Source: Dehalococcoidia bacterium
GTDB lineage: Bacteria > Chloroflexota > Dehalococcoidia > UBA2979
Assembly: GCA_965219085.1 (NCBI GenBank)
Contig: OZ244720.1
Span: 672,001 to 736,000 of the forward strand
Direction: 5' to 3'
Length of the DNA stretch: 64,000 bases
In this document: positions 46,911 to 62,786 of the stretch, in pieces
How the letters are laid out: each line of letters opens with the position of its first letter
Numbering within the stretch: position 1 is the first letter of the stretch
Notes under the pieces: model-generated
Database searches by the model: none
The model's input: only the letters and a program-made list of their open reading frames with translations
What the model was told of the DNA's origin: nothing
Position numbers and translations under genes: made by a program

Positions 46911-47244
46911 GTGGCTCGACGGGGACTACGGGTGATGCGCTGTCCGGGTAGGCGCTCGCACCTGCGCGTATGAGGGCCGTTCTCCCCGAGGACAACCCGG
47001 GATGAGGCCGTCCGTTCGGCCTCACGTTCGCGTACGGGATGGCAGCGCAGACGGTCGCCGAAGGCTCGCGGTGACCGCGGTCGAGGACAGCGACCGGCCG
47101 AACCTGGCCTACGGCGCGCCCGGGCCGGCTCAGGCTCATACGGGGTGCTGGAGTAGGGGCAGCGACCCGGCCTGAGCGGGCCGGGACCTGCCGCTGTGCG
47201 GCGTCCGTGGCTGTCCGGCAGGGTTTCGGGCGACAAAGGAGCCC

Positions 47245-47340
47245 GCATACATGGACGTGCCCCGTGTCTTGCGGCCTTGCGGCCTTGCGCCCGCGCCGGC
47301 CGGCTCCTTAACGGCGAAACGGCTGCATACATGGACGTGC
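47245..47340. repeat. Perfect 16-bp direct repeat pair flanking a short CTTGCGGC tandem, at the junction of the array and the conjugative element
   Basis: GCATACATGGACGTGC at 47245-47260 and 47325-47340; CTTGCGGC x2.7 at ~47268-47290. Confidence 0.8.
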
Positions 47341-47394
47341 GGGGGAGGCCATCGCTCTGACAGCAATGGCCTCCCCTCCCTCGTGCCCCCCGGC

Positions 47395-49677
47395 CTATCC
47401 GGGTGTGCCGACCAGGCCCTCCTCGTGTTCCCGCTCCAGCGCCCACTCGAACAGGGAGAGCGTCGGAGCCTCGTCCCGACGCCGGCGCTTCGGATCGCCG
47501 GGCTCCCCGGCCATGAACTCCGCCCACGAGAACAGCGTCTGCTGCCGCTCCGGGGTTTCGTCATCGGCGTTGCCGCCAATGGGAAGGGCGGTGTGGCCGT
47601 TGCCATCGGCCCTGTTGGCGTGGACCTCGACGATCACCGGCTCGGGCGCACGCCAGCCGTCGTCGACCAGCAGCGCCTCGGCCTCCGCCGCGACCTGCTG
47701 CGCCTGGGCGAACACCGACTCGACCGAGCCGGCGTCCTCCTCCCCGGCGACGATCTTCCTCGCGAGCGCGAGCATCAGGTCGTCACCGTCGTCCCCATAG
47801 GCGGCGAGGCCGTCCTCGGGCAGCTCACCCTCAACCGCCAGCGACGATTGGAGCTTCTTCGCCACGAGCTTGAGGGCGTCGGCCTGCAGGGTGTTCCGGT
47901 AGGCCATGAAGACGACCTGCACGGGCTGCGTCTGGCCGATGCGCCAGGACCTGCGGGAGGCCTGGCGCATGGTGTACACGCTGTAATCCGTTTCGTACCA
48001 GCAAATCGTCGGGAACTCCACGAGGTCGAGTCCCGTCTGCACCAGCCGCGGGTGGCAGACGAGCACGTCGACGCCCTCCTCGACCCGCTGCGCCACCCAC
48101 GCCTCGCGGCGCTCGGGCGGCACGGCGTCCGCCTTCATCACCGCGACCCGGAAGCCGTGGCGGCCGAGGAACTCCTCCATGCGCCCGGTGATGTCGCGCG
48201 TGCCCGTGTGGGTCGCGTAGACGAGCACCCTCCGGCCCGCCAGACGCTCGGCGGCGACGAGGTCGACGAGCGCCTGCTCCTTCGGGTAGAGCTTTTCCGC
48301 AGGGAGGGGCGGCACCTGCACGAGCAGCTCCTCGGTCTCCGGGTCGAAGACCGCCTCGCCGCGCGTGCAGCCGTCGGGGTAGGCGAGCAGCGTCTGCAGG
48401 TAGGTGGCCAGCAGCCGCCGCGAGCCCTTCGAGAGCGCGTCCGCGAGCGCCGCCCGCAGCGTCTCGAAGAGCGTGTCGTAGCCACTGCGCTGGGAGAGCC
48501 CCGTCGCATCGGCTTCCGTGTCCATCGAGGAGAGCAGCACGCGCTCCTCGTAGGGCGGGAGCCCCGAGGCCACGTCCGAGAGCCGCAGGAACACCGCGTT
48601 GCCGATGAGGTGGAAGAGGGCGGCGGGGGCGAGCCCCGGCCGCTCCCTGATCACCTTCCGGTACTTGCGGCGGCGGCTCGTGCGTCCGTCCTCCTCCGCG
48701 ATGTCGTCGTCCCTGCCGATCGTGTGCTCGACGAAGCCGTAGCGCTCGATCCAGCGGCCCTCCTCGGAGCGCCCGAACTCCCCCCGGATCTCCGGGCTGA
48801 ACCGGTAGAGCAGGTGGAAGAGCGTCGAGGAGTAGCCGCCCATCAGGGTTCCGCTGAGGCTGAGCGACTTGCCGCAGACGTCGGCGAGGATGCCGGCGGC
48901 GATGCCCTGGGCGGAGCCGCGCCCCTTGTACTCGTGCACCTCGTCACCGACCAGCAGGTCGAAGAACCGCTTCAGGCGGAGCTTCACGTAGTCCGCCAGC
49001 GGGTAGCGCTTCGGGCCCGAGCGGTCGGCCTGCCAGAGGCCGGAGCCGCACTCGCCGCAGCGGCGCTTGCGGCGGGCGAGGTCGCGGGCGAGCAGGGGCA
49101 CGCCGTCCTTGTCCACGATCTGCGCATGGCAGTCCGGGCAGCACGGCACCTGGAACGGCTCGCCCGTCTCCTCGTGGCGCACCAGTCCCCGCGCGGTGGT
49201 GGCCCAGCGCTGCACGACGGCGGGCTGCCAGCGGTAGGAGAGCTTGGCGCGCTCGCGCGACATGATCGCGAAGAGCGGCCCGGTGCCGGTCGTGGCGCGC
49301 AGCCGCTCCAGGTCGGTGATCGAGGCGACGATCACGGCGCGGGCGCCGGGCACCGTCGCCTCGACCTCGCGCTTCCACTTGCGCGTGAGGTGCGGCGGGC
49401 AGAGCACGAGCACCCGCTCGAAGCCGGCCATATAGGCCGCCGAGGCGGCGATGAAGGTCTTGCCTGTGCCCATCTCCCCGACGACGGTCGTGCCGCGCTG
49501 CGCCTCGAGCGAGAGCGCCGCGCCGCGGATGGCGTCGGCCTGCGCGCCCAGGGGAGCGCGTAGCAGGGGCGGGAGCGCCCGGTCCTGCTCGGAGGGCCGA
49601 TAGCGGGGCGGGTACGACTCCACCACCCGCCGGGCGATGGCGTCGCGGTAGGCGTCGATGAATCCTGCGAGGTCCAT
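47395..49677 (-). CDS. SF2 (SNF2-like/DExH) helicase of conjugative elements with Zn-ribbon insertion
   Basis: ATG 49677 after AAGGA (MDLAGFIDAY); Walker A GEMGTGKT, DEVH, SLSGT, TGLDL, QASRRSWRIGQ; CCPDC...CGEC. Confidence 0.88.
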   Translation of the reverse strand: MDLAGFIDAYRDAIARRVVESYPPRYRPSEQDRALPPLLRAPLGAQADAIRGAALSLEAQRGTTVVGEMGTGKTFIAASAAYMAGFERVLVLCPPHLTRKWKREVEATVPGARAVIVASITDLERLRATTGTGPLFAIMSRERAKLSYRWQPAVVQRWATTARGLVRHEETGEPFQVPCCPDCHAQIVDKDGVPLLARDLARRKRRCGECGSGLWQADRSGPKRYPLADYVKLRLKRFFDLLVGDEVHEYKGRGSAQGIAAGILADVCGKSLSLSGTLMGGYSSTLFHLLYRFSPEIRGEFGRSEEGRWIERYGFVEHTIGRDDDIAEEDGRTSRRRKYRKVIRERPGLAPAALFHLIGNAVFLRLSDVASGLPPYEERVLLSSMDTEADATGLSQRSGYDTLFETLRAALADALSKGSRRLLATYLQTLLAYPDGCTRGEAVFDPETEELLVQVPPLPAEKLYPKEQALVDLVAAERLAGRRVLVYATHTGTRDITGRMEEFLGRHGFRVAVMKADAVPPERREAWVAQRVEEGVDVLVCHPRLVQTGLDLVEFPTICWYETDYSVYTMRQASRRSWRIGQTQPVQVVFMAYRNTLQADALKLVAKKLQSSLAVEGELPEDGLAAYGDDGDDLMLALARKIVAGEEDAGSVESVFAQAQQVAAEAEALLVDDGWRAPEPVIVEVHANRADGNGHTALPIGGNADDETPERQQTLFSWAEFMAGEPGDPKRRRRDEAPTLSLFEWALEREHEEGLVGTPG

Positions 49678-49798
49678 GGTTCCGTTCCTTTCGTCCTGTA
49701 GGGTTTGGCGAGCCGCGCGATGCGGCTTGTGACAGAGCGAGGCCCCGTCCCACGCGGGTGGTGGGGCGGGGCCTCGTGGTGCCGCTCGGAGTGAGCGG

Positions 49799-50832
49799 TC
49801 AGGCGGCGATGTCGGTGATCTCGCCGATGTCGAGGTCGAGAGCGACGACGGTGGTGCGCAGCCGCTCCCGGTAGACCTCTTTCTCAGGCGTGGTTTCCAC
49901 CAGCACCATCTCCTTTGATGTCTTCCCCTTGACGAGGATGCGACTGCCCTCGGCCTCGAGTTGCAGGTTGTCGAGGAAGCCGGCCGCCACCAGCATCGCG
50001 AGGTGGCCGCGGCGCAGCGGCATGAGTGGCGCGTGCGCCCGTCCTCGGCCGGCCAGAGCGCGTCGGTCACCGTCGCGCTGACCCAGAGCCCGGAGCGCCG
50101 CGACTCCGCAGCCGCGGCCACCGGGTCGATAGTGCGGGTGGCGAAGAGCACCTCGCCGCCGGCGGTCGCCCGGGCGTTGTAGACCGGATAGCGCTGGCGG
50201 CTCAGCTCCTCGACGTTGCCCTCCATGCACTCCTGCAGCCGCACGGCGCTGTACTGGTCGTACTGCACCTCGGCCTTGCGCGTGCCCATGACGACGACCT
50301 GGTCGAAGGCCTCACGCTCCGGGTCCGGGAAGGCCCAGCAGCGCAGCCGCGCGTAGTGCGAGGCGAGGTAGTTGGCGGAGCCCGCCAGCCGCCGCCTCGG
50401 CACGACGAACACGAGCAGCCCGTGCTCGGCCAGGTAGCGCGTGCAGTGCCTGAGGAACGCGTGCTCGGTGCGCTTCTCCTCGCCGGCGTCGTCGTCGTAC
50501 GGGGGATTCAGGTAGAGCAGCCCGAACGCCCCGTTGGCGATCGACGTCTGGAAGAGGTCCGTGCCGAGCACGTGGTCGAGGCGGTCCTGCGCCTCCTTCG
50601 CGCGCTCGGCGTGGAGCTCCACTCCGTAGGTCTCGACGGCGGAGCCGTCGGGACGGTCGATGCGGGCGGCGAGCTGCGCGAGCGCATCCCCGGCCCCGCA
50701 GCAGGGGTCGAGGATGCGCAGCGTGGTCTCGCCGCGGGCAGTGCTGCGAGCCTGCATCAGGCTCGCGATCATCTCGGTGACGCGTGGCGGCGTCGGGTAG
50801 AAACCGCCCTTCGCCTGGGCTGCCAGTCTCAT
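49799..50832 (-). pseudogene. ICE-type DNA methyltransferase (DUF6094-like) with a single frameshift near 50028 (real or sequencing error)
   Basis: N-part GFYPTP, ILDPCCGAG, YGVEL, LYLNPPY lies in ORF 47395..51222; C-part PLMPLRRGHLAMLVAAG...ITDIAA* lies in ORF 49799..50230. Adding one C at ACG CGC [C]CA CTC ATG joins them. Confidence 0.8.
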
Positions 50833-51494
50833 CTCGTGTCTCCTTCCCTGGTCAGGGTTGTCGTGGGCTCCGCGGGCTCCTCCCGCGGCAGCGTGAGCGT
50901 CCCGGCCGCCACGGCGTGCGAGAGGTCCTCGCGCAGCGCCTCGGCATTCGGGGTGCAGCGGTAGGCGGCGATGCCTGCCGACTGCAGCGGTACGACCTCG
51001 GCCTCCGCCAGTCCCCGGTGCCACAGCCAGTCCGCCCAGCTGCGGTGCAGGGGCAGCGGGCTGCGACGATCGAGGAAGCGGTGGTGCAGGGCGGGTGCCT
51101 CCTCCTCGCCCGGGGCGAGCAGCAGGAACGCATCCCGCTCGAAGGCGTACTCGGCCATGCGCGTGTAGACGAGGGCGTGCCAGCCTCCCGAGACGGGCAG
51201 GCGGCCGATCTTCGTCGTCCACGTGCCGAGCGTCTCGTAGGGGACCTCGCAGCGGTGGAATCCGCCCGAGAGCACCGCCCCGTCCGTGCCGGCGAGCAGG
51301 TGCGCGGTCTCCGGCGGGTGCTTGAGGAGGGCGGCCCAGATTGCCTTGAGGGCGCTCTGGGCTCCGACCATCGAGAGGAACCAGAGTCCCTCCGAGTCGG
51401 GGTCGCGCGCGAAGGCGTCGGCCGTGGCCGAGAAGCCGTTCGCGCTGATCGTGTAGAGGTCCTGGGTGTCCGGGGCGGCGTGCGCCACGAGCAT
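50829..51494 (-). CDS. Hypothetical protein translationally coupled to the methylase
   Basis: 221-aa ORF, AAGGAG RBS, ATGA overlap with the methylase start. Confidence 0.8.
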   Translation of the reverse strand: MLVAHAAPDTQDLYTISANGFSATADAFARDPDSEGLWFLSMVGAQSALKAIWAALLKHPPETAHLLAGTDGAVLSGGFHRCEVPYETLGTWTTKIGRLPVSGGWHALVYTRMAEYAFERDAFLLLAPGEEEAPALHHRFLDRRSPLPLHRSWADWLWHRGLAEAEVVPLQSAGIAAYRCTPNAEALREDLSHAVAAGTLTLPREEPAEPTTTLTREGDTR

Positions 51495-51556
51495 GGGCTG
51501 TCTCCTTCCGTACGTATCTGGTTGGTGGATTGCGCGGGCGAGCGCCCGCGTCTGCG

Positions 51557-52054
51557 TCAGCCGCCGAAGAGCCCGCGCTCCCGGAGGCTGACGGCTTCGT
51601 CGCCGATCACGATGTGGTCGAGCAACTCGATGCCGAGCAGCGTCGCCGCCTCCTCCAGCGCCTTCGTGACGTCGACGTCGTTCGTGCTCGGCGTCGCGTC
51701 TCCGCTGGGGTGGTTGTGGACGACGATCAGGTTCGGGACGGCCTCGACGACCGCCGGGCGCAGCACCTCGGCCAGCCTCACGACCGCCGAGTAGCAGTTG
51801 CCGAGGTAGATCACCCGCTGGCCGACGACGCGGTTGCGGCGGTCGAGCAACAGCACGCGCAGTTGCTCCTGCGCGAGCGTCCCCATCTCCGGCCCCAGCA
51901 GGCGCTGCACGTCCTCGGGAGAGCCGATGATCGGAGCGTCGGGCTCGCGGTCGGGCCGCGTCTCGACCTCGTAGCGCACCGCCAGCTCGTTGAGGACATC
52001 GAGGTTGCTGCGCAGCGCCGCGAGCAGCGCGTCGGCGTGCCCGGTGGCGGTCAT
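51557..52054 (-). CDS. radC: RadC-family JAB/MPN domain protein
   Basis: QEQLRVLLLD, HNHPSGDATPS..D, LLDHIVIG; ATG 52054 overlaps the upstream TGA. Confidence 0.92.
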   Translation of the reverse strand: MTATGHADALLAALRSNLDVLNELAVRYEVETRPDREPDAPIIGSPEDVQRLLGPEMGTLAQEQLRVLLLDRRNRVVGQRVIYLGNCYSAVVRLAEVLRPAVVEAVPNLIVVHNHPSGDATPSTNDVDVTKALEEAATLLGIELLDHIVIGDEAVSLRERGLFGG

Positions 52055-52587
52055 GCCGCCACCTCCACGGGCAGCGCCTGCCCGAGCGGGCAGATGCAGT
52101 CCTGGTGGTCGGGAGAAGCGTCGTCGTCGCAGTCGAGGCAGTTGCCGCAGTTGCGGCAGGCCACCCGCTGGTGCGCCGCGTCGCGGGCGTGACGCCGGGC
52201 GACGGTGTCCTCCCAGCAGCAGTTCAGCTCGCAGTTGTCGCCGTGGTCGTCCCCTGCCGCGGCGGCGTCCTGCTCGCAGTCGCGGCAGTGCGTGCGCCCG
52301 CGCACGACGGGGTGGCCGCAGCCGGCGCAGTCCCCGCCGTAGTCGCCTGTGGCCTCGAGCTCGGCCCTCACCGTCCTCTGGATGAGGGGGTGGCCGTCGG
52401 GGCCTTCGGACTCGGCGACGTAGTGCCAGGCCCACTTCATCCCGAGGTCGGCCCAGTCCGCGGTGCGGTAGGACCAGCGGTCGCAGGTGCAGTGGCCGTT
52501 GAAGTGGTCGGGACCCTCGAGCAGGGTCATGACCAGGTCGTGCCTGCTCACGACCGGCAGCTCGTGGTGATTGGTCGTCCGTGACAT
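52051..52587 (-). CDS. Cys/His-rich putative zinc-binding protein of unknown function
   Basis: 178 aa, AAGGAG RBS; HCTC, CAGC, CRDC, CELNCC, CRNCGNCLDC, CIC motifs. Confidence 0.75.
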   Translation of the reverse strand: MSRTTNHHELPVVSRHDLVMTLLEGPDHFNGHCTCDRWSYRTADWADLGMKWAWHYVAESEGPDGHPLIQRTVRAELEATGDYGGDCAGCGHPVVRGRTHCRDCEQDAAAAGDDHGDNCELNCCWEDTVARRHARDAAHQRVACRNCGNCLDCDDDASPDHQDCICPLGQALPVEVAA

Positions 52588-52706
52588 GGTCGGGTTCTCC
52601 TTCGTGGTTGATGGTGTCCGTGATGGATGCGGCGAGGCCGCCCCCTGAGGGAGCGGCCCCGTGTGCGCCCGCGTGTCGGCGGGCGGCGTCTGTGTGCCGT
52701 GGGTGG

Positions 52707-53105
52707 CTAGAAGGGCTGGTCGTCCGCCGTCGCGGCGGCGGCCTCCCGGCTGCCGTTCCCGTTGCCGTTCGTGCGCCCGTTGCCGTTTGAGTCGAGGAAG
52801 ATGACCTCCTGCGCGTGCACCTCGCTGCGGTGGCGGCGCTGGCCGTCCTGCGTCTCGTAGCTGTTCTGCGCGAGCGAGCCCGCGACGAAGATGCGGTTGC
52901 CCTTCTTCACGTACTCGGCGACGGCCTCGGCCTGCTTGCCCCAGCAGACGACGCTGTGCCAGTCGGCCTCGGTCTCGCCGTTCTGACGGCGGCGGTCGGT
53001 CGCCAGCCTGAGCTGGCAGATCGCCGTGCCGTTCTGGCTGTACTTGAGCTCGGGCTCCGTGCCCACGCGGCCCAGCAGCTCGATGCGGTTGATCGTGCGT
53101 GACAT
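52707..53105 (-). CDS. ssb: Single-stranded DNA-binding protein (copy 2)
   Basis: NRIELLGRVG.EPELKY, LATD, WH.VVCWGKQAE, KG..IFV.G.L, acidic tail DDQPF; ATG 53105 with AAGGAG. Confidence 0.95.
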   Translation of the reverse strand: MSRTINRIELLGRVGTEPELKYSQNGTAICQLRLATDRRRQNGETEADWHSVVCWGKQAEAVAEYVKKGNRIFVAGSLAQNSYETQDGQRRHRSEVHAQEVIFLDSNGNGRTNGNGNGSREAAAATADDQPF

Positions 53106-53251
53106 GTTCAGTCTCCTTCTGGTGATGGTTGTCACCGTGGCGGTGCGGCCTCGCCGCACCTGGTTCGAAACGACGGCGGGGCCGCCCCCGTCAGGGAGCG
53201 GCCCCGTGTGCGCCCGCGCGCGGCGGGCGGCGTCTGTGTGCCGGTGGTTGG

Positions 53252-53644
53252 CTAGAAGGGCTGGTCGTCCGCGACCTCGGCGGCGGCCTGCTGGCCACCG
53301 TTGCCGTTGGAGCGCCCGGTGCCGTTCGAGTCGAGGAAGATGACCTCCTGCGCGTGGACCTCGGTGCGGTAGCGGCGCTGGCCGTCCTGCGTCTCGTAGC
53401 TGTTCTGGGCGAGCGAGCCCGCGACGAAGATGCGATTGCCCTTCTTCACGTACTCGGCCACGGCCTCGGCCTGCTTGCCCCAGCAGACGACGTTGTGCCA
53501 GTCGGCGTCGGTCTCGCCGTTCTGGCGGCGGCGGTCGGTCGCCAGCCTGAGCTGGCAGATCGCGGTGCCGTTCTGGCTGTACTTCAGCTCGGGGTCGGTC
53601 CCGACCCGGCCCAGCAGCTCGATGCGGTTGATCGTCCGTGACAT
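53252..53644 (-). CDS. ssb: Single-stranded DNA-binding protein (copy 1)
   Basis: Same OB-fold motifs and DDQPF tail; tandem duplicate at ~545-bp spacing. Confidence 0.95.
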   Translation of the reverse strand: MSRTINRIELLGRVGTDPELKYSQNGTAICQLRLATDRRRQNGETDADWHNVVCWGKQAEAVAEYVKKGNRIFVAGSLAQNSYETQDGQRRYRTEVHAQEVIFLDSNGTGRSNGNGGQQAAAEVADDQPF

Positions 53645-53837
53645 TTCAGATTCTCCTTTTGGTGTTGGTTGTCACCGTGGTGGTGCGGCCTCGCCGCACC
53701 TGGGTTCGAAACGACGGCGGGGCCGCCCCGAAGGACGGCCCCGTGTGCGCTCCCGGAAGGGAGCGTCTCTGCAGCGCGTGTGCTCCAGGCACCTGCGATG
53801 GGCACCTCCTTCCGTTTGCTTGTTGGCCTTCAGGCGC

Positions 53838-54557
53838 TCAGGCGGCCTTCGGCGTCTCGGTCGCGCCGTCCTCCCGGAGCTTGCCGGCCGCGGCCTCCAC
53901 CAGCGGGGTGAGGGCCGCGACCGGGAGCTCGTCGAGATCCTGGCCCGTGCGCTCGCGCACGGCGGACCGCACCTTCGCCTCGTCGAAGCCGCGGCAGTTG
54001 CCGAGGTCGACGAGGGTCTTGCGCAGCGACGGCGCGAGCTCGCCCGTCGCCCCGTCGCCGTAGAGGCTGTTCCCGAACTGGTCGCCGTAGCTCCGCAGCG
54101 CCCGCTTGAGCGCATCCGTGACCGCGCCCTTGTGCGCGGTCTCGTGGCCCTCGACTGTCTCGTCCGCGACGGCCTGGAAGCCGACGTCGGTACGCGAGGG
54201 CGAGCCGGGAACGGTCACCCGCACGGTCGCGGTGTAGGCGCGCCAGGGCTTGGCCTCGCCCGTCCTCGGGTCGACGCTCTCGCCCTCCCGTAGTTCGACG
54301 GGAGCGACCAGCTCGTAGCCCCAGCCGCCGTGTCCGAAGACGCGGTTGGCCTGGTCGATGACGGTGTACCCCTCGATGTAGGCGTAGCTGCGGTTGCCGC
54401 GCCCCTTGCGCTGCGAGACGAGACCCTCGTCGAGGGGCTCGCCGAGCCGCTGCGTGACGGCGGGTGGGAGGCTGTCCCACACGAGGTCGCGCTCCGGGAC
54501 GGGCTCGGGGTGGACGCCGTTGCGGCTGCCGTTGACGGTCGGTGTTGCGTTCGTCAT
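53838..54557 (-). CDS. Rad52/Rad22-family single-strand annealing protein
   Basis: RKGRGNRSYAYIEGYTVIDQANRVFGHGGW, RTDVG, KGAVTDALKRALRSYGDQFGNSLY; ATG 54557 with AAGGAG. Confidence 0.9.
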   Translation of the reverse strand: MTNATPTVNGSRNGVHPEPVPERDLVWDSLPPAVTQRLGEPLDEGLVSQRKGRGNRSYAYIEGYTVIDQANRVFGHGGWGYELVAPVELREGESVDPRTGEAKPWRAYTATVRVTVPGSPSRTDVGFQAVADETVEGHETAHKGAVTDALKRALRSYGDQFGNSLYGDGATGELAPSLRKTLVDLGNCRGFDEAKVRSAVRERTGQDLDELPVAALTPLVEAAAGKLREDGATETPKAA

Positions 54558-54759
54558 GTGTCGCTCTCCTTCGTGCTGTGCATGGCTGGATGGACTGGTT
54601 GCGGGCCTCCCCAGGGGGAGACCCGTGCGCGGGGCGGAGCCCCGTCGGTCAGCGGTCATCGCGCCTCCTTCCGGTTGGCGGTTGGCCGGCGGGCACACGG
54701 AAGCGGCCCGGCCCCTTCGGGGAGCCGGGCAGTCAATGCCCGTCGGTGGGATGGGTTGG

Positions 54760-55806
54760 TTAGCGGGCGGCGCGAGCCGCCCGTTCGAGCAGGCGCAGGA
54801 AGACTTCCCGCCCCTGCGGCTGGGTCGCAAGTTCGGCCACGTCGGCGATGCCCTGGGGCAGGGCCACGACGGCGGCGCGGCGGCCAAGCAGGCTGGTGAG
54901 CCGCGCCGCCGCCTCGCGTCCGGCGCTGTCTGCATCGAAGGCGATGAAGACGTTGGGGCAGCCCCGCAGGGCGGCGGCCACCCGCTCCATGCCCTGCGTG
55001 CCGAGGGCGGCGCAGGCGGGCAATCCCCACTCGCTCAGGACGAGCCAGTCGAAGACGCCCTCGGTCACGACCGCCCACGGCGAGGCGTGACCGACCCGTC
55101 CCAGCCCGAGCACGGGCTTGGGGCCGGGCAGCGACTGGAAGCGGGGCGAGCGCTCCGGGTCGATGGCGCGTCCCGTGAGCCAGCGGACGCGACCGCCCGC
55201 GACCTCGGGGACGACCACCATGCCGCCGAAGCGCTCGCCGTGCTCCGTGAACAGCCCGCTCTCGCGGATCCGTCCGGAGGTGAAGCCCGCGGACGCAAGT
55301 GCTGTCCGCAGCCCGCGCCCCGGCGCATGGCCGAGGCCGAGCCGCATGGCCGTGTCGAGGTCGATGCCCCGCGAGGCCAGGTACGCCCTCGCCTTGGCAC
55401 TGCGGCGAAGCTGCCCCGCGTAGTACCTCGCCGCCGCCGTCGCGATCGCCGGGTCGGGCGGCGGAACCGCCGTCCGAGCAGCGGCCCGTCGAGAGGCTCC
55501 GAGGTGGGCAGGAGCGGTCGTGGGCGGAGAGGCGTCGAGCCGCCGGATCGCCTCCGGCAGGCTCACGCCCTCGGCGCGCTGGATGAAGTCCAGCACGTCG
55601 CCGCCCTCGCCGCAGCCGAAGCAGTACCAGCGCTCGGTGTCGGCGTAGACGGTGAAGCTGCCCTCGGCCTCCTCGTGGAAGGGGCAGATGCCCTGCCGGA
55701 CGCGGCCCCTGCCGTGCAGGCGAACGCCCGACGCCTCCACCACGTCGCCCAGCGGGTGACGCGCCTTCAGCGCCGCGATGTCGACGCGCGCTTGCGCGGC
55801 GACCAT
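54760..55806 (-). CDS. DnaG-like DNA primase (CHC2 zinc finger plus Toprim)
   Basis: CPFHEE..GSF...WYCFGCGEGGDV, YLASRGI, VTEGVFD, FIAFDADSAG; ATG 55806 overlaps the upstream TGA. Confidence 0.92.
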   Translation of the reverse strand: MVAAQARVDIAALKARHPLGDVVEASGVRLHGRGRVRQGICPFHEEAEGSFTVYADTERWYCFGCGEGGDVLDFIQRAEGVSLPEAIRRLDASPPTTAPAHLGASRRAAARTAVPPPDPAIATAAARYYAGQLRRSAKARAYLASRGIDLDTAMRLGLGHAPGRGLRTALASAGFTSGRIRESGLFTEHGERFGGMVVVPEVAGGRVRWLTGRAIDPERSPRFQSLPGPKPVLGLGRVGHASPWAVVTEGVFDWLVLSEWGLPACAALGTQGMERVAAALRGCPNVFIAFDADSAGREAAARLTSLLGRRAAVVALPQGIADVAELATQPQGREVFLRLLERAARAAR

Positions 55807-56270
55807 CACGAGCTGCCCTTCGCCAGGGGCCGCAGTCCCCGCAGGCTGCGCCGCGAGACGACCTTGCCGGAGTGCCAGCGCATCCCGAGGACGGCCAGCA
55901 CCTCCAGTGCCCCGCCGGGCTGCGGGGCGAGCACCGCCGCTCGCCCGGTGGCGGGGCTGTAGACGACCGCCTCGCGCCCCGCGAAGCGCCGCCGTGTGAC
56001 ATCGAGCCATTCGGCGTACGCCCAGCGCGCCTCCTGCTCCGTGACCCTCTTCAGGTCCGCGCCGGCGAGCACCGCGAGCGCCCCGTCGAGGTCGCCCTGC
56101 CGCCTCAACCGCCGCGCCTCGTGGACGCTGCGGGCGATGCTCGGTTCGGGTTCCGGCGACGCTCCGAGGAGCGCCTCGAAGACCCGGTCCACCAGCTCTT
56201 CGAGGCTGCGGCCGGGGCGGTCTCCCGCCACCTCCGCAGCCGTGTTCAGCGTTCCCGTTGCCATCGTCAT
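55806..56270 (-). CDS. Hypothetical protein coupled to the primase
   Basis: ATG 56270 with AGGAGG (MTMATGTLN...); TGATG overlap with the primase start. Confidence 0.7.
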   Translation of the reverse strand: MTMATGTLNTAAEVAGDRPGRSLEELVDRVFEALLGASPEPEPSIARSVHEARRLRRQGDLDGALAVLAGADLKRVTEQEARWAYAEWLDVTRRRFAGREAVVYSPATGRAAVLAPQPGGALEVLAVLGMRWHSGKVVSRRSLRGLRPLAKGSS

Positions 56271-56394
56271 TTCGTGTCCTCCTGTGGTGTGGTTCCTGGT
56301 GCCGGGTCGTGCGCCCTCGCGGGCATGAAGAGGGCCGCCTCCAAAGAGGCGGCCCCATGGCTGGGTGGATACGGTGGGCCGGAGCCCAGGGTCG

Positions 56395-56898
56395 CTAGCG
56401 CCGGACCACCCTCGTGCGGCGGCGGCCGGCAAGCAGCCGTGCGACGAAGATCGCCCCGGCACCGAGCCCGGCCGCGTTGAGCACGGCCAGTTCACCGCCG
56501 TGGCCGAACAGCAACGGCGCCGCGAGCAGCGCCACCAACCCGACGACCACCGCGGGCTTCCGCCCACGCCTCGTTGGGCGAACTGCGGGAGCCTCGGGCA
56601 TCAGCTCGTAGGCCGTCCAGATGGGCAGCCCGATGACGCCCTCGACCGCGGTGACGGCGTGGGCGCGCGTGCAGCCGCCGGTGTGGCAGCGCACATCGAT
56701 GCCGTTGCCGTCGGGCCGCTGCCGGAACGCCAGCCCGTCCGACGCGCCGCCGTGGCAGATGGCGGTAGTCGTCCAGAACCAGCCCCGCTCGAAGCTCACC
56801 CGCTGCGGGATGAGGTTCGCGATGCGGCCGGCGCTCGGTCCTGTGTACTGCTGCGCCGTGGCTCGCATCTCCATGGCGTCCCTCTGCTCTGTGTTCAT
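56395..56898 (-). CDS. Hypothetical protein: primase-Zn-ribbon-like N-terminus plus two C-terminal transmembrane helices
   Basis: AAGGAGG RBS; AICHGG...LAF...DG..IDVRCHTGGC; hydrophobic AVVVGLVALLAAPLLF and AAGLGAGAIFVARLL. Confidence 0.7.
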   Translation of the reverse strand: MNTEQRDAMEMRATAQQYTGPSAGRIANLIPQRVSFERGWFWTTTAICHGGASDGLAFRQRPDGNGIDVRCHTGGCTRAHAVTAVEGVIGLPIWTAYELMPEAPAVRPTRRGRKPAVVVGLVALLAAPLLFGHGGELAVLNAAGLGAGAIFVARLLAGRRRTRVVRR

Positions 56899-57473
56899 GT
56901 CTCGTGACCTCCTTCGTCACTGCTGCGTTGCTGGTGACCCGTGTCGGCATCCGTGGCTCGGGTAATGGCTGGGTTGTCGCTGCACGCACTCCGCCCACGG
57001 TCGGATGCCGGACCGGGGAACGGGGTGGCTGGGCCGCGCTCGTGCGAAGCGGCCGGCCTGCGAATCACTCGCGGACGGGCTCGGTGCAGGGGCGGCGGAC
57101 GTGAGGAACGGGCCGAGCGCAGGACGCACTCCGCCCAGAGACTCCGGGGCCGAGTGCAGGATGCAACTCGCCCGCGGTCTCCCGGCGTTCGAGGCAACGT
57201 CGGGGGAGCAGCGCTCGACCCTTCTGCTGCCTCCCGCTGCGGGAAGGCGGTTGTCCCTCACTGGATCGCCGTCGGGAGAGCAGGGCTCTATCCGTCGGGT
57301 CGGTCCGGGTCCGGGATGGACCCTCCAGGTTTCTACGGCAGGAAACGCTGGCAAAGCCGGAAACTGCTTGGCAGTGTCGCCTAGTCCCCGCACCGATGGA
57401 AGGGGGTTTGGGCCTCCCGCGCCGAATCACTTGCTGCGATGTAGCTGCGATGTAGCGGGGGCCGACCGGGGCC

Positions 57474-58382
57474 CTACTTCCGCCACAACCCGAGGGTCAG
57501 CACGCGGCGGACGCAGCGCCAGAACAGCGCCCAGCGGCGCTCCGCCCGCGCGTCTGCCAGCGACTGCTCGCGCCGCCACATCTCCTTGTCGCGTTCGAGG
57601 CGGTCCCAGGGGTAGTAGGCCGGCAGCAGCGTCAGTGCGTGCTCCCGGATGAGGACGAGCTCCAGCTCCCGCATGCGCACCCAGGCGGTGGCGCGGGCCA
57701 GCCTGCTTCTGCCCTGGTCGATGTGCTCGACCCGCACCCGCCGCCACTCCACGATGAGCGGCATCGCCTCGCAGTAGACGAGCTCCTCGCCGGGCTCCGG
57801 CTCCAGCGTGACGATGTCAGGGTACGTTCGCCGGGGCGGGGTGCCCGCCGGTTCCCCGCCGACCGCCGGCCGTGTGTCCGGGTCGACCGGGGGCAAGGTT
57901 GCCAGCCGCCGTTCCCACTGCCTGAGTGTCTGCGCCTGCGCCTCCCGCAGATCCGCGAGGTCGCCGCGGACGGCGTCGAGCCCGCTTCGCACCGTCTCCT
58001 CCAGCGCTCCCGTGCGCTGCTCGAGGGCGCTGAGGCGCTCGCCTTGCCGCACCACCTCGGAGCGCTGATCGGCCAGCAGCCGCCGCTCCAGTGCCGAAGC
58101 CAGGCGCGGCACGAGCCGCCCCGAATTCATGCTCCGCCAGAGCGTCTTGCGGTCGACGCCCAGTTCCTCCGCCGCCTTCACGCGGCCCACCCGCTTCACG
58201 AGGTCGTGCAGCAGCGCCATCAGCCGCAGCTCGCGCACGCTCTCCAAGCTCGGCGTCTCGCCCGTTGCGTCCGGCGCTCCGCCGTTTGCCGCGCCTCCGT
58301 CCATGTTCCCGTTTGCCCCATTTCCCGGCTGTTCTGGAACATCGCCCCGCGCCCGGGGATGTGCCCGATGCCCCATATCCCG
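57474..58382 (-). CDS. Helix-turn-helix and coiled-coil protein, probable element regulator (start uncertain)
   Basis: Within ORF 57474..58439; Fis-like HTH GRVKAAEELGVDRKTLWRSM, heptad-rich LSALEQRTGALEE. Confidence 0.65.
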   Translation of the reverse strand, partial: RDMGHRAHPRARGDVPEQPGNGANGNMDGGAANGGAPDATGETPSLESVRELRLMALLHDLVKRVGRVKAAEELGVDRKTLWRSMNSGRLVPRLASALERRLLADQRSEVVRQGERLSALEQRTGALEETVRSGLDAVRGDLADLREAQAQTLRQWERRLATLPPVDPDTRPAVGGEPAGTPPRRTYPDIVTLEPEPGEELVYCEAMPLIVEWRRVRVEHIDQGRSRLARATAWVRMRELELVLIREHALTLLPAYYPWDRLERDKEMWRREQSLADARAERRWALFWRCVRRVLTLGLWRK

Positions 58383-58555
58383 GCGCTCCTGCCCCATGGC
58401 GGTGGAATCCGCACTGGAACCGGATTGCTTGCTCGTCACGTCCTGTAGGGGCGCTTTCCCCTTGTCCTGCCTGGGTTCTGACCGCTGGGCCGTTCCGTTA
58501 CCAACGTCGCTTCTCCTTACACGGCTACCACACCACGACCGGCCCCGTGCCGGCC

Positions 58556-58599
58556 ATGCCTCATAAGGGAGGTCACGCGTGACCTCCCTTATGAGGCAT
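58556..58599. repeat. Perfect loopless 44-bp palindrome
   Basis: ATGCCTCATAAGGGAGGTCACG|CGTGACCTCCCTTATGAGGCAT. Confidence 0.95.
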
Positions 58600-58640
58600 T
58601 ACCTCGCGCCGGCTGAGCCGCGACACTCCTCACCCCTGCA

Positions 58641-58654
58641 AGAACGCTCGTTCT
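58641..58654. promoter_or_regulatory. Perfect LexA (SOS) box, GAAC-N4-GTTC type
   Basis: AGAACGCTCGTTCT, 5 nt upstream of the AAGGAGG RBS of the first T4SS-operon gene. Confidence 0.7.
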
Positions 58655-58671
58655 GTAACAAGGAGGCGTCC

Positions 58672-59289
58672 ATGAGGCGGCAACCAGGAACAACAGCCGG
58701 TAGGGCGAGGCGGCTGAGGACGCTGGCGGCGGCGCTGCTGCTGGCGGCGCTCGCCACCATCCCCTCGAGCGGCGTCGCCCTCGCCCAGGAGCCGCCCGCG
58801 GAGGCCATCGTGCTCGTCAACGAGACCGCCGAGGATCTCGTCGAGCGCAAGGACGACGGACGCTTCATCGCACGCCCCGTCTTCGACCGCGAGGTCCCGC
58901 TCCTCTACTACGGCGTGCGCGACGGCGACACGGGCGATTGGCTCACCGTCGTCTTCCGGGTGCGCGACGACGGCGAGGAGCGGCGCGACGGCCGCGAGTA
59001 CTCCTTCGAGTACCCCTTCGAGAACGGCCAGCCCGAACTCGACCCGGAGCGTCCCTACCTGCTGGTGATGCTCGCGGGCGAGCTGGCGGAGTCGCCGCAG
59101 CCCTTCTACGCCGTCATCCCGCCCCACCAGCCCGGCGGTCTCTGGAACAGGGTTCTCGGCGCGCTCGACCCCGAGCGCTGGGGCAAGGCCGTCGCCCGCT
59201 GGGTGATCGAGGGCGCGCACGGGACGCTCTGCGGCGTCGTGGAGCGCGCCTCAGGCGACGACACCGATGTCTGCGAGGTCGCCCCGTGA
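58672..59289 (+). CDS. Secreted/membrane-associated protein, first gene of the transfer operon
   Basis: ATG 58672 with AAGGAGG; signal peptide ...RLRTLAAALLLAALATIPSSGVALA; GTGA overlap with the next gene. Confidence 0.8.
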   Translation: MRRQPGTTAGRARRLRTLAAALLLAALATIPSSGVALAQEPPAEAIVLVNETAEDLVERKDDGRFIARPVFDREVPLLYYGVRDGDTGDWLTVVFRVRDDGEERRDGREYSFEYPFENGQPELDPERPYLLVMLAGELAESPQPFYAVIPPHQPGGLWNRVLGALDPERWGKAVARWVIEGAHGTLCGVVERASGDDTDVCEVAP

Positions 59290-60272
59290 GCGACATCTTC
59301 ACGGGCACGCCGCCCGGCCTCACCTACGACCACGAGATCGTCCGCCAGGCGTGGACGGCGGTCTGGATCATCACCTCCGGCGCGCTCGTCGTGATCATCG
59401 GCTGGATGGGGCTGAGCCTCATCATCGGCGACCACCTCGGCCGCGCGCAGGCGGGCTGGCGCGAGCTGGTCCCGCGCCTCGGGCTGGGACTCGTGGCCGC
59501 CGCCGCCTCGCTGTGGTGGTGCGCGCTCGTCATCGACGTGGCCGACGCCATCTCCGGCTTCATCGCCGCCGAGCTGGGCGTGACCGCCGGCGACATGCTG
59601 CGCTCGACGCTGCGCACGCTGCTGACGGCGGTGGCGGCGGGCAGCGTGGGCATGGGCCTGCTGCTGGCCTTGCTCTACCTCGTCTACGGCTTCTTCGTGC
59701 TCTACCTCGTGGTGCAGATGGTGCTGCGCCTCGCGCTGATCGACATCCTGCTGGCGCTCGCGCCGATCGCCCTCGGGCTCTGGATCCTCCCGCACACGGC
59801 GGGCTGGGGCCGGCACTGGCTGCGCCTCTTCATGACGACCGTCTTCCAGCAGGCGATCCAGCTGATCGCGCTGGCCCTCGGCATCGGCTTCCTCAACGAG
59901 TACGCCGCGATCGGCGGCGGCGAGCCGATCCAGGACCTCGTCTGGAAGCTGCTGATGTCGCTGGCCTTCATCTACCTGGCGACGCGCGTGCCCTCGCTGC
60001 TCGGCAACGTCGGGACCTTCGATGCCTGGCTGCACACCCTCCACTTCGGCATGTCCCTGCCCGGCTCGATGGCCCGCTCGGCGCGCTCCGTGGGGCTGCT
60101 GGTGGGCGGCGGCGCGGCGGGCGGCCCGGTGGGTGCGGCGGTTGCCGCCGGGGCCGCGGGCGGAGTGGCCTCGGCGGCGACCTCGGGCGTGCGCTCGGCG
60201 GCCGAGCTGGCGACCCCCTCTTCGGGCGGTGGCGCCGCTGGCGGCGGCGCGCCCAGGAGCAGCAGCGAGTAG
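59286..60272 (+). CDS. TrbL/VirB6-like polytopic T4SS membrane protein
   Basis: Multiple TM helices, RLALIDILLALAPIAL..WILP.T..W...W, Gly/Ala-rich tail. Confidence 0.8.
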   Translation: MSDIFTGTPPGLTYDHEIVRQAWTAVWIITSGALVVIIGWMGLSLIIGDHLGRAQAGWRELVPRLGLGLVAAAASLWWCALVIDVADAISGFIAAELGVTAGDMLRSTLRTLLTAVAAGSVGMGLLLALLYLVYGFFVLYLVVQMVLRLALIDILLALAPIALGLWILPHTAGWGRHWLRLFMTTVFQQAIQLIALALGIGFLNEYAAIGGGEPIQDLVWKLLMSLAFIYLATRVPSLLGNVGTFDAWLHTLHFGMSLPGSMARSARSVGLLVGGGAAGGPVGAAVAAGAAGGVASAATSGVRSAAELATPSSGGGAAGGGAPRSSSE

Positions 60273-60417
60273 CGACAACAACAACCGCAACCAGGCAGCG
60301 CGGCCTCTTCGCGCCGATCGAGACGCAAACGGAGGTGGGAGATGTGCCGGTAGGCGAACGAGCAGCAGCACCGAGAGACGAACGAGAACACGCAAACGCG
60401 AGAGGAGCGAAACACAA

Positions 60418-60711
60418 GTGGAAGACCTGACTCAGACCATCTCCAACCTGGTGGGCATCCTGCTCGGGGTCGTCGGCGCGATCGGCGTCGGCTTCTTCAT
60501 CTACGGGTCCTACCTCTACCTCACCGCCTCGGGCGCACCGCACCAGATGGAGCGCGGCAAGAGCGCGATGATGACCGCTTTGGCCGGGATCGTCCTGGCG
60601 ATGGTGGCCTTCGGCGTCGTCGAACTGGTGATGGACGCCGTCGTCAACCCCGTCGTGGATGTCGACGTCCCCGAGCCCACGGGCGCGACCACGACCACAG
60701 AGGGGGGATAG
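60418..60711 (+). CDS. TrbC/VirB2-like pilin
   Basis: GTG 60418 after AGGAG; two TM helices around IYGSYLYLTASG.P...ERGK. Confidence 0.75.
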   Translation: MEDLTQTISNLVGILLGVVGAIGVGFFIYGSYLYLTASGAPHQMERGKSAMMTALAGIVLAMVAFGVVELVMDAVVNPVVDVDVPEPTGATTTTEGG

Positions 60712-60714
60712 GCC

Positions 60715-62472
60715 ATGCGAGAACACGAGGTTCCCACCCACGTGCAGGCCGAGGACCGCGTCCTGCTGTGGTTCACGTTTCCCCAGATCGTGGCGATGAC
60801 GGCCGTCTGCGCCCTCGCCTACGGCGTCTACCGCTACGCCCCGTTCGGTCCTTCCGAGGTGCGCATGGCGCTGGCCGTGCTCTTCGGGCTGGCGGGGCTG
60901 GCGGTCGTCGCGGGGCGGATCGGCGGCAGGCGGCTGCCGCTCGTGGCGGCCGACCTGCTGCGGTACGGGCTGGGGGCGCGGCGCTACGCCGGGCCTCCGG
61001 CCGAGCTGGTGCGCAGCGAACAGCCCGCGCCGGCGCAGCCCGCCGAGCGGAATGCCGATCCCGTGCGGCTGCTGGCGCGGCGCGTGCTGCGCCGGACCCG
61101 CCGCGTGAGCCAGCGGCGCAAGGAGGGCGAGCGCCGCAACGGGCGCATGCCCTTCCGCCCCCACCGCCTCTTCGGCAAGCGCCGCCGCGGCGGCGAGGAG
61201 CCCGAGAGCGACAAGCGGGCAGCGACCCGGGAGGACCGGGAGCAGCGGCTCGGCTCGCAGCGGCGAGGCCGGCGCGGCTTCTGGAAGACCTTCCTGGCGG
61301 CGGCCGCGCTGGCGCTGGTCGTCCTCACCGCCCTGCCGCTCGCGGCGGCGCTCGCCCAGGAGCCCGGCGGGGAGGGCTGGAGCTCGGACGAGATCGAGTT
61401 CCAGCCCCCGCCGGAGGTTCCCGGGCGGCGGCTCTTCGTCGAGGAGCTGACCGTCGGCGGCGAGCGGGCCGAGGTCGTCCTGCGGGCGGCCACCGACCTG
61501 GACCTGCGGGTGCGGGCCTACGGCGGAGCCGAGGGGCGCTCGTCCCGCTACTACGCGCTGGCCTCGCTGGAGGCGGGCGAGCGCGTCCGCTACGACCTGC
61601 CCCTGCATGGCCCTTCCCCTTCGCTTGTCTTCTCCTGGCAGGACGAACTGGGGCAGGCCGGGGCCGTCAGCCTCGACGGTGAGCGGCTCCCCTGGCCGCT
61701 GCCCGCCGTCACGGGCGAGCTGTGCGTCCTGCGCGTCGTCTCGCTCGGCTGGACGCCGGGGGCCGTCGAGGGGGCGATCACCTCGGAGTGCGTGAGCACG
61801 ACCGAGGAAGCGGTCGTCCTGCAGACGGTCACCGGGCACGCCGACGTGACCACGACGGCCCTGCTGGAAGGCGAGGTCGTTGCCGTCACCGGGACCATCA
61901 CGGTCGGCGGAGACGGCTCTGAGACGAGCGTCACGTTTGTCACCGGCGGCAAGACCCGCTTCCGGCTCCCGGTCGCGGCGGGCGAGGCCGTCCACGCCCT
62001 CGCCATCGAGGCGGACCTGGAGGCGTCGCTGCGCATCGCTCTGCCGCCGCTCGTGGAGCTGACGCACTACCCGCGGCGCGTCGAGCAACTCACGGAGACG
62101 GCGGAGGTCAGCATCCCCGCCTTCGGCGACACCGTGACGGAGACGTTCGCGGTGCCCGGCGAGGACGGCGCCTTCACGGAGCACAGCGTGACGGCCAGCT
62201 GCCACGTCCCCGCCTCGACCGTCCGCCAGGACGTCGTCTTCAGCGTCGTCCACGACGAGCGCGTCGAGGCCGCGGTCACGGAGCGGGCGCCGCTCGCGCG
62301 CAGCCGCGAAGAGGCCCTGGCGCTGGCATCGAGCATCCGGGCAGACGACGCCTACGTGGCGCTGGTCGTGCCGGAGCCCGAGCCCGAGCCGGACCCGGTC
62401 ACGCAGACGCCCGCCGGAGACGGCGAGCTGCGGGGTCTCTTCGACCAGCTCGGCTGGGAGTGGGTCTGGTGA
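60715..62472 (+). CDS. PrgI-family protein fused to a large C-terminal beta-rich extracellular-type domain
   Basis: HEVPTHVQAEDRVLLWFTFPQI plus 2 TM helices and GGRRL motif; internal basic stretch and signal-like helix (FLAAAALALVVLTALPLAAALAQE). Confidence 0.75.
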   Translation: MREHEVPTHVQAEDRVLLWFTFPQIVAMTAVCALAYGVYRYAPFGPSEVRMALAVLFGLAGLAVVAGRIGGRRLPLVAADLLRYGLGARRYAGPPAELVRSEQPAPAQPAERNADPVRLLARRVLRRTRRVSQRRKEGERRNGRMPFRPHRLFGKRRRGGEEPESDKRAATREDREQRLGSQRRGRRGFWKTFLAAAALALVVLTALPLAAALAQEPGGEGWSSDEIEFQPPPEVPGRRLFVEELTVGGERAEVVLRAATDLDLRVRAYGGAEGRSSRYYALASLEAGERVRYDLPLHGPSPSLVFSWQDELGQAGAVSLDGERLPWPLPAVTGELCVLRVVSLGWTPGAVEGAITSECVSTTEEAVVLQTVTGHADVTTTALLEGEVVAVTGTITVGGDGSETSVTFVTGGKTRFRLPVAAGEAVHALAIEADLEASLRIALPPLVELTHYPRRVEQLTETAEVSIPAFGDTVTETFAVPGEDGAFTEHSVTASCHVPASTVRQDVVFSVVHDERVEAAVTERAPLARSREEALALASSIRADDAYVALVVPEPEPEPDPVTQTPAGDGELRGLFDQLGWEWVW

Positions 62473-62786
62473 GGCGGCTCACGACCGCCCTGCTCTTCGC
62501 CGGGGTCGCGCTGGTCACCACCGGCGCGGCCCCGGCCGAGGAGCTGGCAATGCTCAACGCCTTCGACGAGGCGCTGACGGCGATGGCCTACGCCGCCGCC
62601 GGGGTCTGCGTCTTCGCCATCGTCTGGGCGGGCTTCCTGCTCATGGCCGACGGCGCCGACGAGCGCGGCGGCGGACGCGCGAAGAGCGCTGTCTTCCTCG
62701 CGGTGTTTGGGCTCGCCCTCGTGCTCTCGGCCAAGGGCGTGGCCGCGCTGCTGCGCCTGGGCGTCGTCCCGATCCCGATCCCCTAG
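62469..62786 (+). CDS. Second TrbC/VirB2-like pilin
   Basis: GTGA overlap; signal-like N-terminus, IVWAGFLLM.DG...RAK..V..AVFGLALVL. Confidence 0.65.
   Translation: MRRLTTALLFAGVALVTTGAAPAEELAMLNAFDEALTAMAYAAAGVCVFAIVWAGFLLMADGADERGGGRAKSAVFLAVFGLALVLSAKGVAALLRLGVVPIPIP

Follow-up and report, generated by a model that had tools for sequence, protein, structure and literature searches.

The stretch of DNA analysed here, a window of 64,000 nucleotides from contig OZ244720.1 of a Dehalococcoidia bacterium (assembly GCA_965219085.1), lies in an integrative conjugative element (ICE) in whose establishment (leading-region-type) operon GC-rich hairpins recur between the genes. The window is 69.5% G+C and belongs to a 3.3-Mb single-contig genome, the host being Dehalococcoidia/Tepidiformaceae-like. 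As delineated by a Pfam scan and open reading frames (ORFs), the operon that carries the hairpins occupies 47395..58376 on the minus strand and comprises, in this order, a 300-aa gene with a weak helix-turn-helix match, a 167-aa and a 154-aa gene to whose proteins the Pfam scan assigned no family, a DnaG-type primase gene with zinc ribbon and Toprim domains (55806-54760), a Rad52-like gene encoding an annealing protein of the Rad52/22 family, two ssb genes, a Cys-rich 178-aa gene, a RadC-like JAB gene, a 221-aa gene, a DUF6094 methyltransferase gene and a helicase gene. Divergent from it, the plus strand encodes TrbL/VirB6, a pilin, VirB4, a TrwB-type coupling protein and a Replic_Relax relaxase, with a large serine recombinase and then housekeeping genes downstream of the relaxase. 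The gene content of the operon, together with the divergent type IV secretion system (T4SS) and relaxase genes and the serine recombinase, identifies the region as an ICE; the Pfam assignments also bear out the placement of the hairpins, in a first-pass annotation made from the sequence alone, in front of the element's DNA-processing genes. Related elements additionally encode ArdC. A second copy of the element in the same genome (G000:C1:2616826-2632796, locus L045 and onward) is 87-89% identical over about 15.5 kb and has three strong motif copies of its own.

RNA folding yields stable minus-strand hairpins in every intergenic gap for which the first-pass annotation had described them, and the coordinates agree. 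The fold z-scores are −4.35 for 49678-49810, −3.44 for 52588-52710, −4.22 for 53106-53255 and −3.64 for 53645-53790, and weaker for 54558-54662 (−1.27) and 56271-56397 (−1.91). A strong hairpin (at least eight G-C pairs) is present in six of the seven co-directional gaps of the operon, compared with 73 of the 636 co-directional gaps of the host genome. The six copies, all on the minus strand, are designated A (53229-53177), B (53765-53718), C (52685-52633), D (54644-54603), E (49798-49738) and F (56388-56313), and were scored with a covariance model, R1, that was built from an alignment of 76 copies (A1) and whose E-values are rough. Copies A, B and C score 51-76 bits, F matches weakly with 22 bits, and D and E do not reach E ≤ 1, indicating that only three of the six copies are clear homologues. 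The earlier description of one element repeated six times therefore holds for A, B and C, holds weakly for F, and does not extend to D and E.

Copy A lies between ssb-1 and ssb-2 and spans 53167..53229 with its tail (R1 match 53162-53242, 73.3 bits); hairpin 1 (53229-53211) is joined through a CACA linker to hairpin 2 (53206-53177; 13 bp, one U.G pair), which is followed by the tail CCGUCGUUUC at 53176-53167. A closing helix pairing the 5′ GACG with the 3′ CGUC of the tail, seen in the fold of copy A, was discarded as not retained, by eye, in other copies. Copy B, between the Rad52-like gene and ssb-1 (53708..53765; R1 match 53703-53778, 75.7 bits), has a hairpin 1 with the stem CGCUCCC/GGGAGCG (53765-53748) and a hairpin 2 (53743-53718) with one U.G pair and the cUUCGg loop that had already been pointed out in the first-pass annotation, followed by the tail CCGUCGUUUC at 53717-53708. 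Copy C, between ssb-2 and the Cys-rich 178-aa gene (52623..52685; R1 match 52621-52698, 51.4 bits), consists of hairpin 1 at 52685-52666 and hairpin 2, with two wobble pairs, at 52661-52633; its tail, CCGCAUCCAU, is U-poor, the counterpart in the second element copy being GCUCUCGUUCC, and copy C accordingly looks degenerate. The three copies are part of a tandem duplication (ssb plus leader) with a period of 539-545 nt and share 20-33 nt of near-identical sequence.

In 44 related loci, retrieved with the Rad52-like protein, R1 finds 126 matches at E ≤ 0.01, 116 of them on the gene strand, while each of the 10 antisense matches overlaps a stronger sense match on the palindromic stem. With two hairpins the motif is about 80 nt long, and its core unit is hairpin 2 plus a 9-nt tail, conserved as A-CGGGGCCG-(variable inner stem and loop)-CGGCCCCG and then C(C/U)N-UCGUU(U/C)C or another pyrimidine-rich stretch. 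It recurs three to six times per operon, at up to six positions per element, after genes and not at the operon start. In its own genome the motif is present in both ICE copies and nowhere else, apart from one chromosomal hairpin that resembles it, and among 151 sampled genomes of the class it occurs in 15, belonging to 10 genera, typically in clusters with copies about 500 nt apart. Given this confinement, the motif moves with its element and does not belong to the repeats of the host genome as a whole. Rfam gives no match at gathering score in the whole window, and the best sub-threshold E-value in 49000-57000 is 1, which is chance level, so that the earlier view of a structured motif without a known family stands. 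None of 72,556 plasmid records contained the motif, since blastn with 52600-53800 aligned to ssb coding parts alone (4 records), and tblastn of the Rad52-like protein against plasmids returned four Streptomyces plasmids at 31-33% identity, which are uninformative on the motif; a literature search on Chloroflexi ICEs and terminators gave no paper on this element. The motif, a conserved RNA feature specific to the element, is a mark of the establishment operon in a hitherto undescribed family of Dehalococcoidia conjugative elements, and R1 can be used to flag such elements in metagenomes.

Hairpin 2 has 11-14 bp and a mean folding energy of −26.6 kcal/mol (103 unique copies). Its eight outer pairs are never broken in A1, the sole variation being 11 wobble cells, and the three inner pairs alternate between C-G, U.G and U-A. 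Hairpin-2 cells are paired in 97-99% of cases, a value that falls to 60% or less when the partner is slid by 1-3 columns; across all 126 matches, in an alignment that was fitted to R1 and includes the 10 antisense shadow matches, 97.2% of cells are paired, and none of 500 shuffles reaches the observed values. Compensatory changes of the outer stem are found in distant copies or other families (GGGGCUG/CAGCCCC, GAGGCC/GGCCUC), and one site in locus L040 combines a different stem with the same tail.

The wobble pairs indicate the strand on which the structure forms. At least one G.U pair is present in 87 of the 103 unique copies, and in the 76 aligned copies there are 76 wobble cells that pair only in the sense strand, against 6 (C.A) that pair only in the antisense strand. 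In the window, strand-specific G.U pairs had been reported for four copies; these are A, B, C and D, and F has them too. Tetraloops close 83 copies, 51 of them being UNCG loops (UCCG, UUCG, UGCG or UACG), of which 46 have a C-G closing pair. Loops of the cUNCGg type have a special stability in RNA, not in DNA. Taken together, the UNCG loops and the wobble asymmetry make a duplex protein-binding palindrome or a fold of the antisense strand unlikely and favour RNA over single-stranded DNA; the motif is a conserved, structured, strand-specific element that acts on the sense strand, most likely as RNA. Among the clusters examined there was no natural inversion separating gene sense from one DNA strand, and an apparent opposite-strand match in locus L065 proved to be a sense copy.

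Hairpin 1 is accessory, and the designation as a two-hairpin element, proposed in the first-pass annotation, fits most copies but not all. The 36 nt upstream of hairpin 2 have a mean fold z-score of −1.45; they are clearly structured (z < −1.5) in 54% of 101 copies, and in some copies there is no hairpin 1. The stems fall into several types (GCUCCC/GGGAGC, GCCCGC/GCGGGC, GCGCCGCC/GGCGUCGC and others), and the two commonest in A1 are related by two fully linked double changes, pair 22-36 being C-G in 26 and U-A in 26 of the 76 aligned copies and pair 24-34 being C-G in 26 and G-C in 26. The alternation between CGCTCCC/GGGAGCG and CGCCCGC/GCGGGCG that had been taken for covariation is thus truly compensatory, and the covariation is genuine, although with two linked stem types it reflects few independent events. 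The short unpaired linker between the hairpins is conserved as GCRCAC, with the A at −1 present in 83% of copies.

Downstream of hairpin 2 the base composition changes abruptly. The first 10 nt contain on average 4.34 T, compared with 0.37 in the 10-nt 5′ flank, in loci with 13% T overall (93 unique copies), which puts U at 43% across positions +1 to +10, compared with a background of 13%. In the same copies T exceeds 50% at +2, +4, +7, +8 and +9 and falls to 3-5% from +11. Tail sequences vary by lineage (GCUAUUCAUUUC, GCUCUUUUUCC, UCUUCAUG) while the U/C-rich composition is retained, and in the less GC-rich loci L034-L036 the tails are GCUAUUCAUUUC and GCUUUUCAUUUC. Intrinsic terminators are recognised by a U-enriched window behind a strong hairpin, which in the motif is about 9 bases long but interrupted. 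The first-pass annotation had stated that the hairpins lack a U-tract. This is correct insofar as no U run adjoins the stem, yet positions +2 to +9 are U-rich (except in copy D, which lacks such a tail), and as an argument against a terminator the statement fails on the tails of the 93 copies.

The motif always lies between a stop codon and the next ribosome-binding site, in sense orientation (116 independent matches in 44 loci). The median gap is 45.5 nt between the stop codon and hairpin 2 and 46 nt between hairpin 2 and the start codon that follows (10th-90th percentile of the latter, 25-79 nt). Spacing to the start codon is variable, with several classes, which argues against a fixed role in translation initiation. 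The ribosome-binding site of the next gene follows 12-75 nt past the hairpin, and at some junctions the tail directly enters the Shine-Dalgarno sequence (GCUCUCGUUUGAGAGGAGG). A promoter scan of 45000-64000 returned no promoter-like site, and hence none between a hairpin and its following gene. In the host chromosome, strong hairpins are commonest in convergent gaps (28 of 146) and rarest in divergent gaps (8 of 186), with the co-directional gaps mentioned above in between, and have interrupted-U tails such as UGCUUGUCUG and CGUUGUCCGG; one chromosomal convergent gap contains the same stem (GGGGCCGCCC-GAA-GGGCGGCCCC) with the tail AUUGAUUG. The host's own probable terminators look similar to the motif.

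From these sequence features we lean, on balance, towards reading the motif as a set of leaky, intrinsic-terminator-like hairpins inside the establishment operon that form transcript 3′ ends. Hairpin 2 with its interrupted U-rich stretch of about 9 nt would be the form that intrinsic terminators take in this high-GC lineage. Considering that the next gene follows close behind and that no promoter-like site intervenes, the hairpins would have to be read through, i.e. they would be leaky. After each gene, some polymerases would stop and the remainder would continue, such that transcription would be graded down along the operon, stray transcripts would be stopped, and the transcript 3′ ends would be capped by a hairpin that blocks exonucleases. 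Where hairpin 1 is present, it would probably insulate the folding of hairpin 2 from the GC-rich coding RNA or provide a second protective stem. Termination, its leakiness and this role of hairpin 1 are what we infer from the observed structure, strand, placement, conservation and tail composition.

The arrangement resembles that of the pLS20 family (conAn) and Tn916, where multiple signals made of a hairpin and a U-rich stretch lie between co-directional genes of the conjugation operon (PMC8955417, PMC8191782, PMC11658703) and where, as we infer here, downstream genes are described as expressed only by read-through (PMC8955417); for pLS20-family conjugation operons the account gives more than 20 internal terminators (PMC8955417). 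In contrast to these systems, the motif has an interrupted U tract set off from the stem, a lower stem that hardly varies between copies and, in many of them, an additional hairpin upstream, and it is located in establishment genes rather than transfer genes, in a Chloroflexota host and with no antitermination system recognised. If the hairpins are leaky terminators, the design with many internal terminators known from Firmicutes plasmids would extend to Chloroflexota and to leading-region genes, and the motif would show what a terminator looks like in a 70% GC lineage in which none has been mapped.

Several observations weigh against termination. None of the window copies has three U adjoining the stem, the tails being CCGUCGUUUC or, in copy C, U-poor, whereas three U next to the stem are described as the most conserved and critical terminator feature (PMC8955417). 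A simple consensus terminator scan of 45000-64000 misses all the hairpin sites, returning two unrelated terminator-like sites where 4.6 are expected by chance. Host-wide, the tails of strong hairpins downstream of genes show no asymmetry (2.35 T in sense vs 2.43 in antisense, n = 93), and the host's terminator rules are therefore not established; the low-GC distant relatives (L041, L043), whose terminator-like sites are no commoner than in shuffles, are uninformative on this point. The Pfam scan recognised no antitermination factor in the operon. The outer 8 bp of hairpin 2 are near-invariant among copies and between elements whose Rad52 proteins are only 52-66% identical, a degree of conservation that exceeds the needs of a generic terminator. 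Finally, the copies are related by descent, so that the counts overstate the number of independent events, and the gene calls behind the distance and gap statistics come from a crude GC3 method.

The best-surviving alternative, rather unlikely but still live, is that the hairpins are elements of RNA stability or processing that give each cistron its own half-life without termination, mRNA processing being one of the functions that the first-pass annotation had suggested. In one variant, cleavage of the transcript would fall within the A/C-rich single-stranded linker or the flanks, leaving hairpin 1 to cap the upstream 3′ end and hairpin 2 the downstream 5′ end; in the other, the hairpins would simply block 3′ exonucleases. 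The layout of two hairpins around a short, conserved unpaired linker, the RNA-like strand-specific folding and the missing U run next to the stem are all consistent with such a function, as is copy D, which has two hairpins without a U-rich tail. Yet neither variant needs the U-enriched 9-nt tail, whose composition is retained as its sequence drifts, no nuclease site is recognisable, and hairpin 1 is absent from a sizeable share of copies. Operon-internal stabiliser hairpins, including those of the REP type, are stable GC-rich intercistronic stem-loops that can set differential expression, REP elements being genome-wide. The motif shares with them the GC-rich intercistronic stem-loop and differs in its confinement to one element family and in its U-enriched tail.

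Less probable still is that hairpin 2 is a recognition site for a factor encoded by the element, read on the RNA or on the transferred single strand. Here, the CGGGGCCG/CGGCCCCG stem, the flanking A and the pyrimidine tail would form a dedicated signal of the ICE family, bound on RNA by an antiterminator, a nuclease timing the early genes or a translational regulator such as SSB, or acting on the single strand as an ssi/sso-type priming signal for the DnaG-like primase, one per ~0.5 kb of leading DNA. Known signals of the priming kind (G4-type ssi, RSF1010 ssiA/B, sso) are hairpins on the strand to be copied that a primase or RNA polymerase recognises and beside which a defined primer start lies. 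If the primase version were true, the hairpins would have no described precedent as repeated priming signals in a conjugative element of the Chloroflexota. The near-invariance of the lower stem and of the A at −1 over more than 100 copies would fit sequence-specific binding, as would the confinement of the motif to the element and its clustering around the primase, Rad52 and ssb genes, and G.T pairs are strand-specific in single-stranded DNA too. However, selection for stability can account for the constancy of the G-C pairs, since a change from G-C to C-G has no viable intermediate; departures from them are mostly wobble pairs, with some A-U pairs in distant copies, and the L040 copy keeps the tail on a different stem. 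The cUNCGg loops speak for RNA, all copies lie between genes and follow the orientation of the gene nearby, and no partner protein was identified. A processive antitermination RNA of the put, EAR or conAn2 type, which is a single element near the operon start, was rejected, as the motif recurs after genes and has no Rfam match.

We regard it as very unlikely that the hairpins serve as recombination substrates, that is, as short homologies for duplication, loss and exchange of gene-plus-hairpin modules. The cassette recombination suggested in the first-pass annotation does find an echo in the variation between loci, where ssb is present in one to three tandem copies, each with the motif, and where extra genes (a 347-aa gene; a DUF7007 and TSCPD pair) come with an extra motif copy in some cases. 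However, the two element copies are about 90-95% identical on either side of each hairpin, with no breakpoint there, and homologous recombination needs neither strand-specific wobble pairs nor UNCG loops; recombination is better seen as a by-product of the repeats than as their purpose. Among known modular arrangements, the promoter-early stem-loop (PeSL) cassettes of T4-type phages and the start-associated sequences of cluster K mycobacteriophages are repeated, conserved intergenic motifs flanking small genes. Like these, the motif is a repeated, sequence-conserved intergenic element of a mobile genome that includes a stem-loop; unlike them, it has no recognisable promoter part and goes with stop codons, its distance to the start codon being variable. 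Integron attC sites are imperfect palindromes with RYYYAAC / GTTRRRY core sites used by the tyrosine integrase IntI. An attC identity was rejected, since the conserved ends are CGGGGCCG/CGGCCCCG, no GTTRRRY is found in A1 and the recombinase of the element is of the serine type.

The analogy with Frpo/ssi elements drawn in the first-pass annotation fares worst: Frpo-like promoters, which fold on the transferred template strand into a mimic of a duplex −35/−10 promoter (with UP element) according to PMC11541004 and would drive expression before synthesis of the complementary strand, are almost certainly not what the hairpins are, since the likeness consists in the leading-region-type gene context (ssb and methyltransferase here, ArdC in relatives) and in the position of some hairpins upstream of ssb, as for some Frpo elements (PMC11541004), whereas the stems are short (11-14 bp), almost pure G-C and devoid of −35/−10/UP mimics or promoter hexamers, the scan of 45000-64000 is empty, and on the template strand required for such a fold the 76 wobble cells, which favour the coding strand, become A.C mismatches. 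Our understanding of how conjugative DNA is first expressed is unchanged by the finding.

Copy D, 5′ of the Rad52-like gene (54603..54644, minus strand), shares the two-hairpin architecture, with hairpins at 54644-54630 and 54624-54603 and a CGCAC joint, but has no U-rich tail and is not terminator-like. It directly follows a conserved Shine-Dalgarno sequence and an ATG (54659-54657) that open a short upstream reading frame running through both hairpins (MT[AD][DT]RRG...; 54557-54662 minus in the window, at ~5880-6003 in loci L001-L039). Of the 31 loci that have the ATG, 12 place it in frame 0 with respect to the Rad52 start, 7 in frame 1 and 12 in frame 2, and because of this variation an N-terminal extension of the Rad52-like protein was rejected. 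In several loci the stop codon of the upstream frame overlaps the Rad52 ATG. Judged by its reading frame, copy D looks like a translated leader or a coupling device for the Rad52-like gene.

The remaining two copies are more distant from the model. Copy E, between the DUF6094 methyltransferase and helicase genes (49738..49798, minus strand; fold z-score −4.35), has no R1 match in the window, while E-type copies of other genomes match weakly. It consists of hairpin 1 (49798-49782), the linker CACCAC and a long-stem hairpin 2 (49776-49738; GAGGCCCCG...CGGGGCCUC) with the tail GCUCUGUCAC, and between the two element copies of the genome the stem base is retained and the interior replaced. Copy F, 3′ of the 167-aa gene (56313..56388, minus strand), has a weak R1 match at 56332-56355 (22.2 bits, E 0.022), and its position is also matched by R1 in many related loci, near 4160-4250. 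A small upstream hairpin (56388-56375) precedes hairpin 2 (56356-56331; GGGGCCGCCUC UUUG GAGGCGGCCC), which is followed by the tail UCUUCAUG and a third small hairpin (56324-56313).

Folding revealed further minus-strand hairpins in the operon. One, directly 3′ of the primase stop codon (54686..54746), has a strong hairpin at 54717 with the core CCCGGCUCCCC GAA GGGGCCGGG and the tail CCGCUUCCGUGUG. A lone short hairpin 3′ of the RadC-like gene (GCGGGCG CUC GCCCGC, 51533..51550) lies in a gap whose folding stability does not exceed that of shuffles (z −0.18). The ssb leader contains a third conserved hairpin (GGUGCGGC GAG GCCGCACC), at 53142..53160 with a second copy at 53682-53700 (repeat family D6 and folding); it is followed by ACCACGGUGACAACC, is retained with loop changes in many related loci, and is possibly involved in ssb autoregulation. 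The first ~17 codons of the Cys-rich 178-aa gene are 62-73% identical in nucleotide sequence to the ssb N-terminus (52536-52587 vs 53054-53105 and 53593-53644; family D3), which suggests that an incomplete third unit of the ssb tandem duplication has been fused to another gene here.

Several other features of the element were recorded. The DUF6094 methyltransferase gene (49799-50832, minus strand) changes frame near 50035-50041, with the N-terminal 264 aa and the C-terminal 78 aa in different frames, which reflects either a pseudogene or an assembly error. The two element copies have unrelated sequences at the 3′ end of the helicase gene, below window position 48024, and the segment 47288-48000, comprising the helicase end and a hairpin (GGGGAGGCCAUUGC...GCGAUGGCCUCCCC) near 47358, is repeated at more than 10 other sites of the genome with 73-93% identity. 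The divergent region between the establishment and T4SS operons contains a perfect palindrome of 44 nt (58556-58599; core GCCTCATAAGGGAGGTCACG|CGTGACCTCCCTTATGAGGC), a candidate operator or origin of transfer (oriT), the other candidate place for oriT being the gene-poor stretch past the relaxase. The first 47 kb of the window are filled by five very large open frames on the plus strand (3-46910; at least 1930 aa, then 900, 2262, 4397 and 4693 aa), with internal repeats ~336 nt apart that show up as shadow ORFs; the products are presumably surface proteins or adhesins belonging to the element. Among relatives, a group II intron-type reverse transcriptase ORF (RVT_1, maturase and HNH; ~600 aa) interrupts the operons of loci L010, L017, L037 and L039 at varying sites, within ssb or the Rad52-like gene, and the distant relative L040 has at 10272-10297 a long C run, then G, then C (an oligo-G/C palindrome). 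In the host chromosome, two other series of near-identical strong hairpins occur at G000:C1:1018578-1024869 and 1215359-1229233 with a spacing of ~2-5 kb, each with its own conserved tail (GAGGGGCGGCC...GGCCGCCCCUC UUGCGUGUC and GGCGGGCGGCC...GGCCGCCCGCU GCGCGUCC), indicating that repeated conserved intergenic hairpins are not unique to the ICE.

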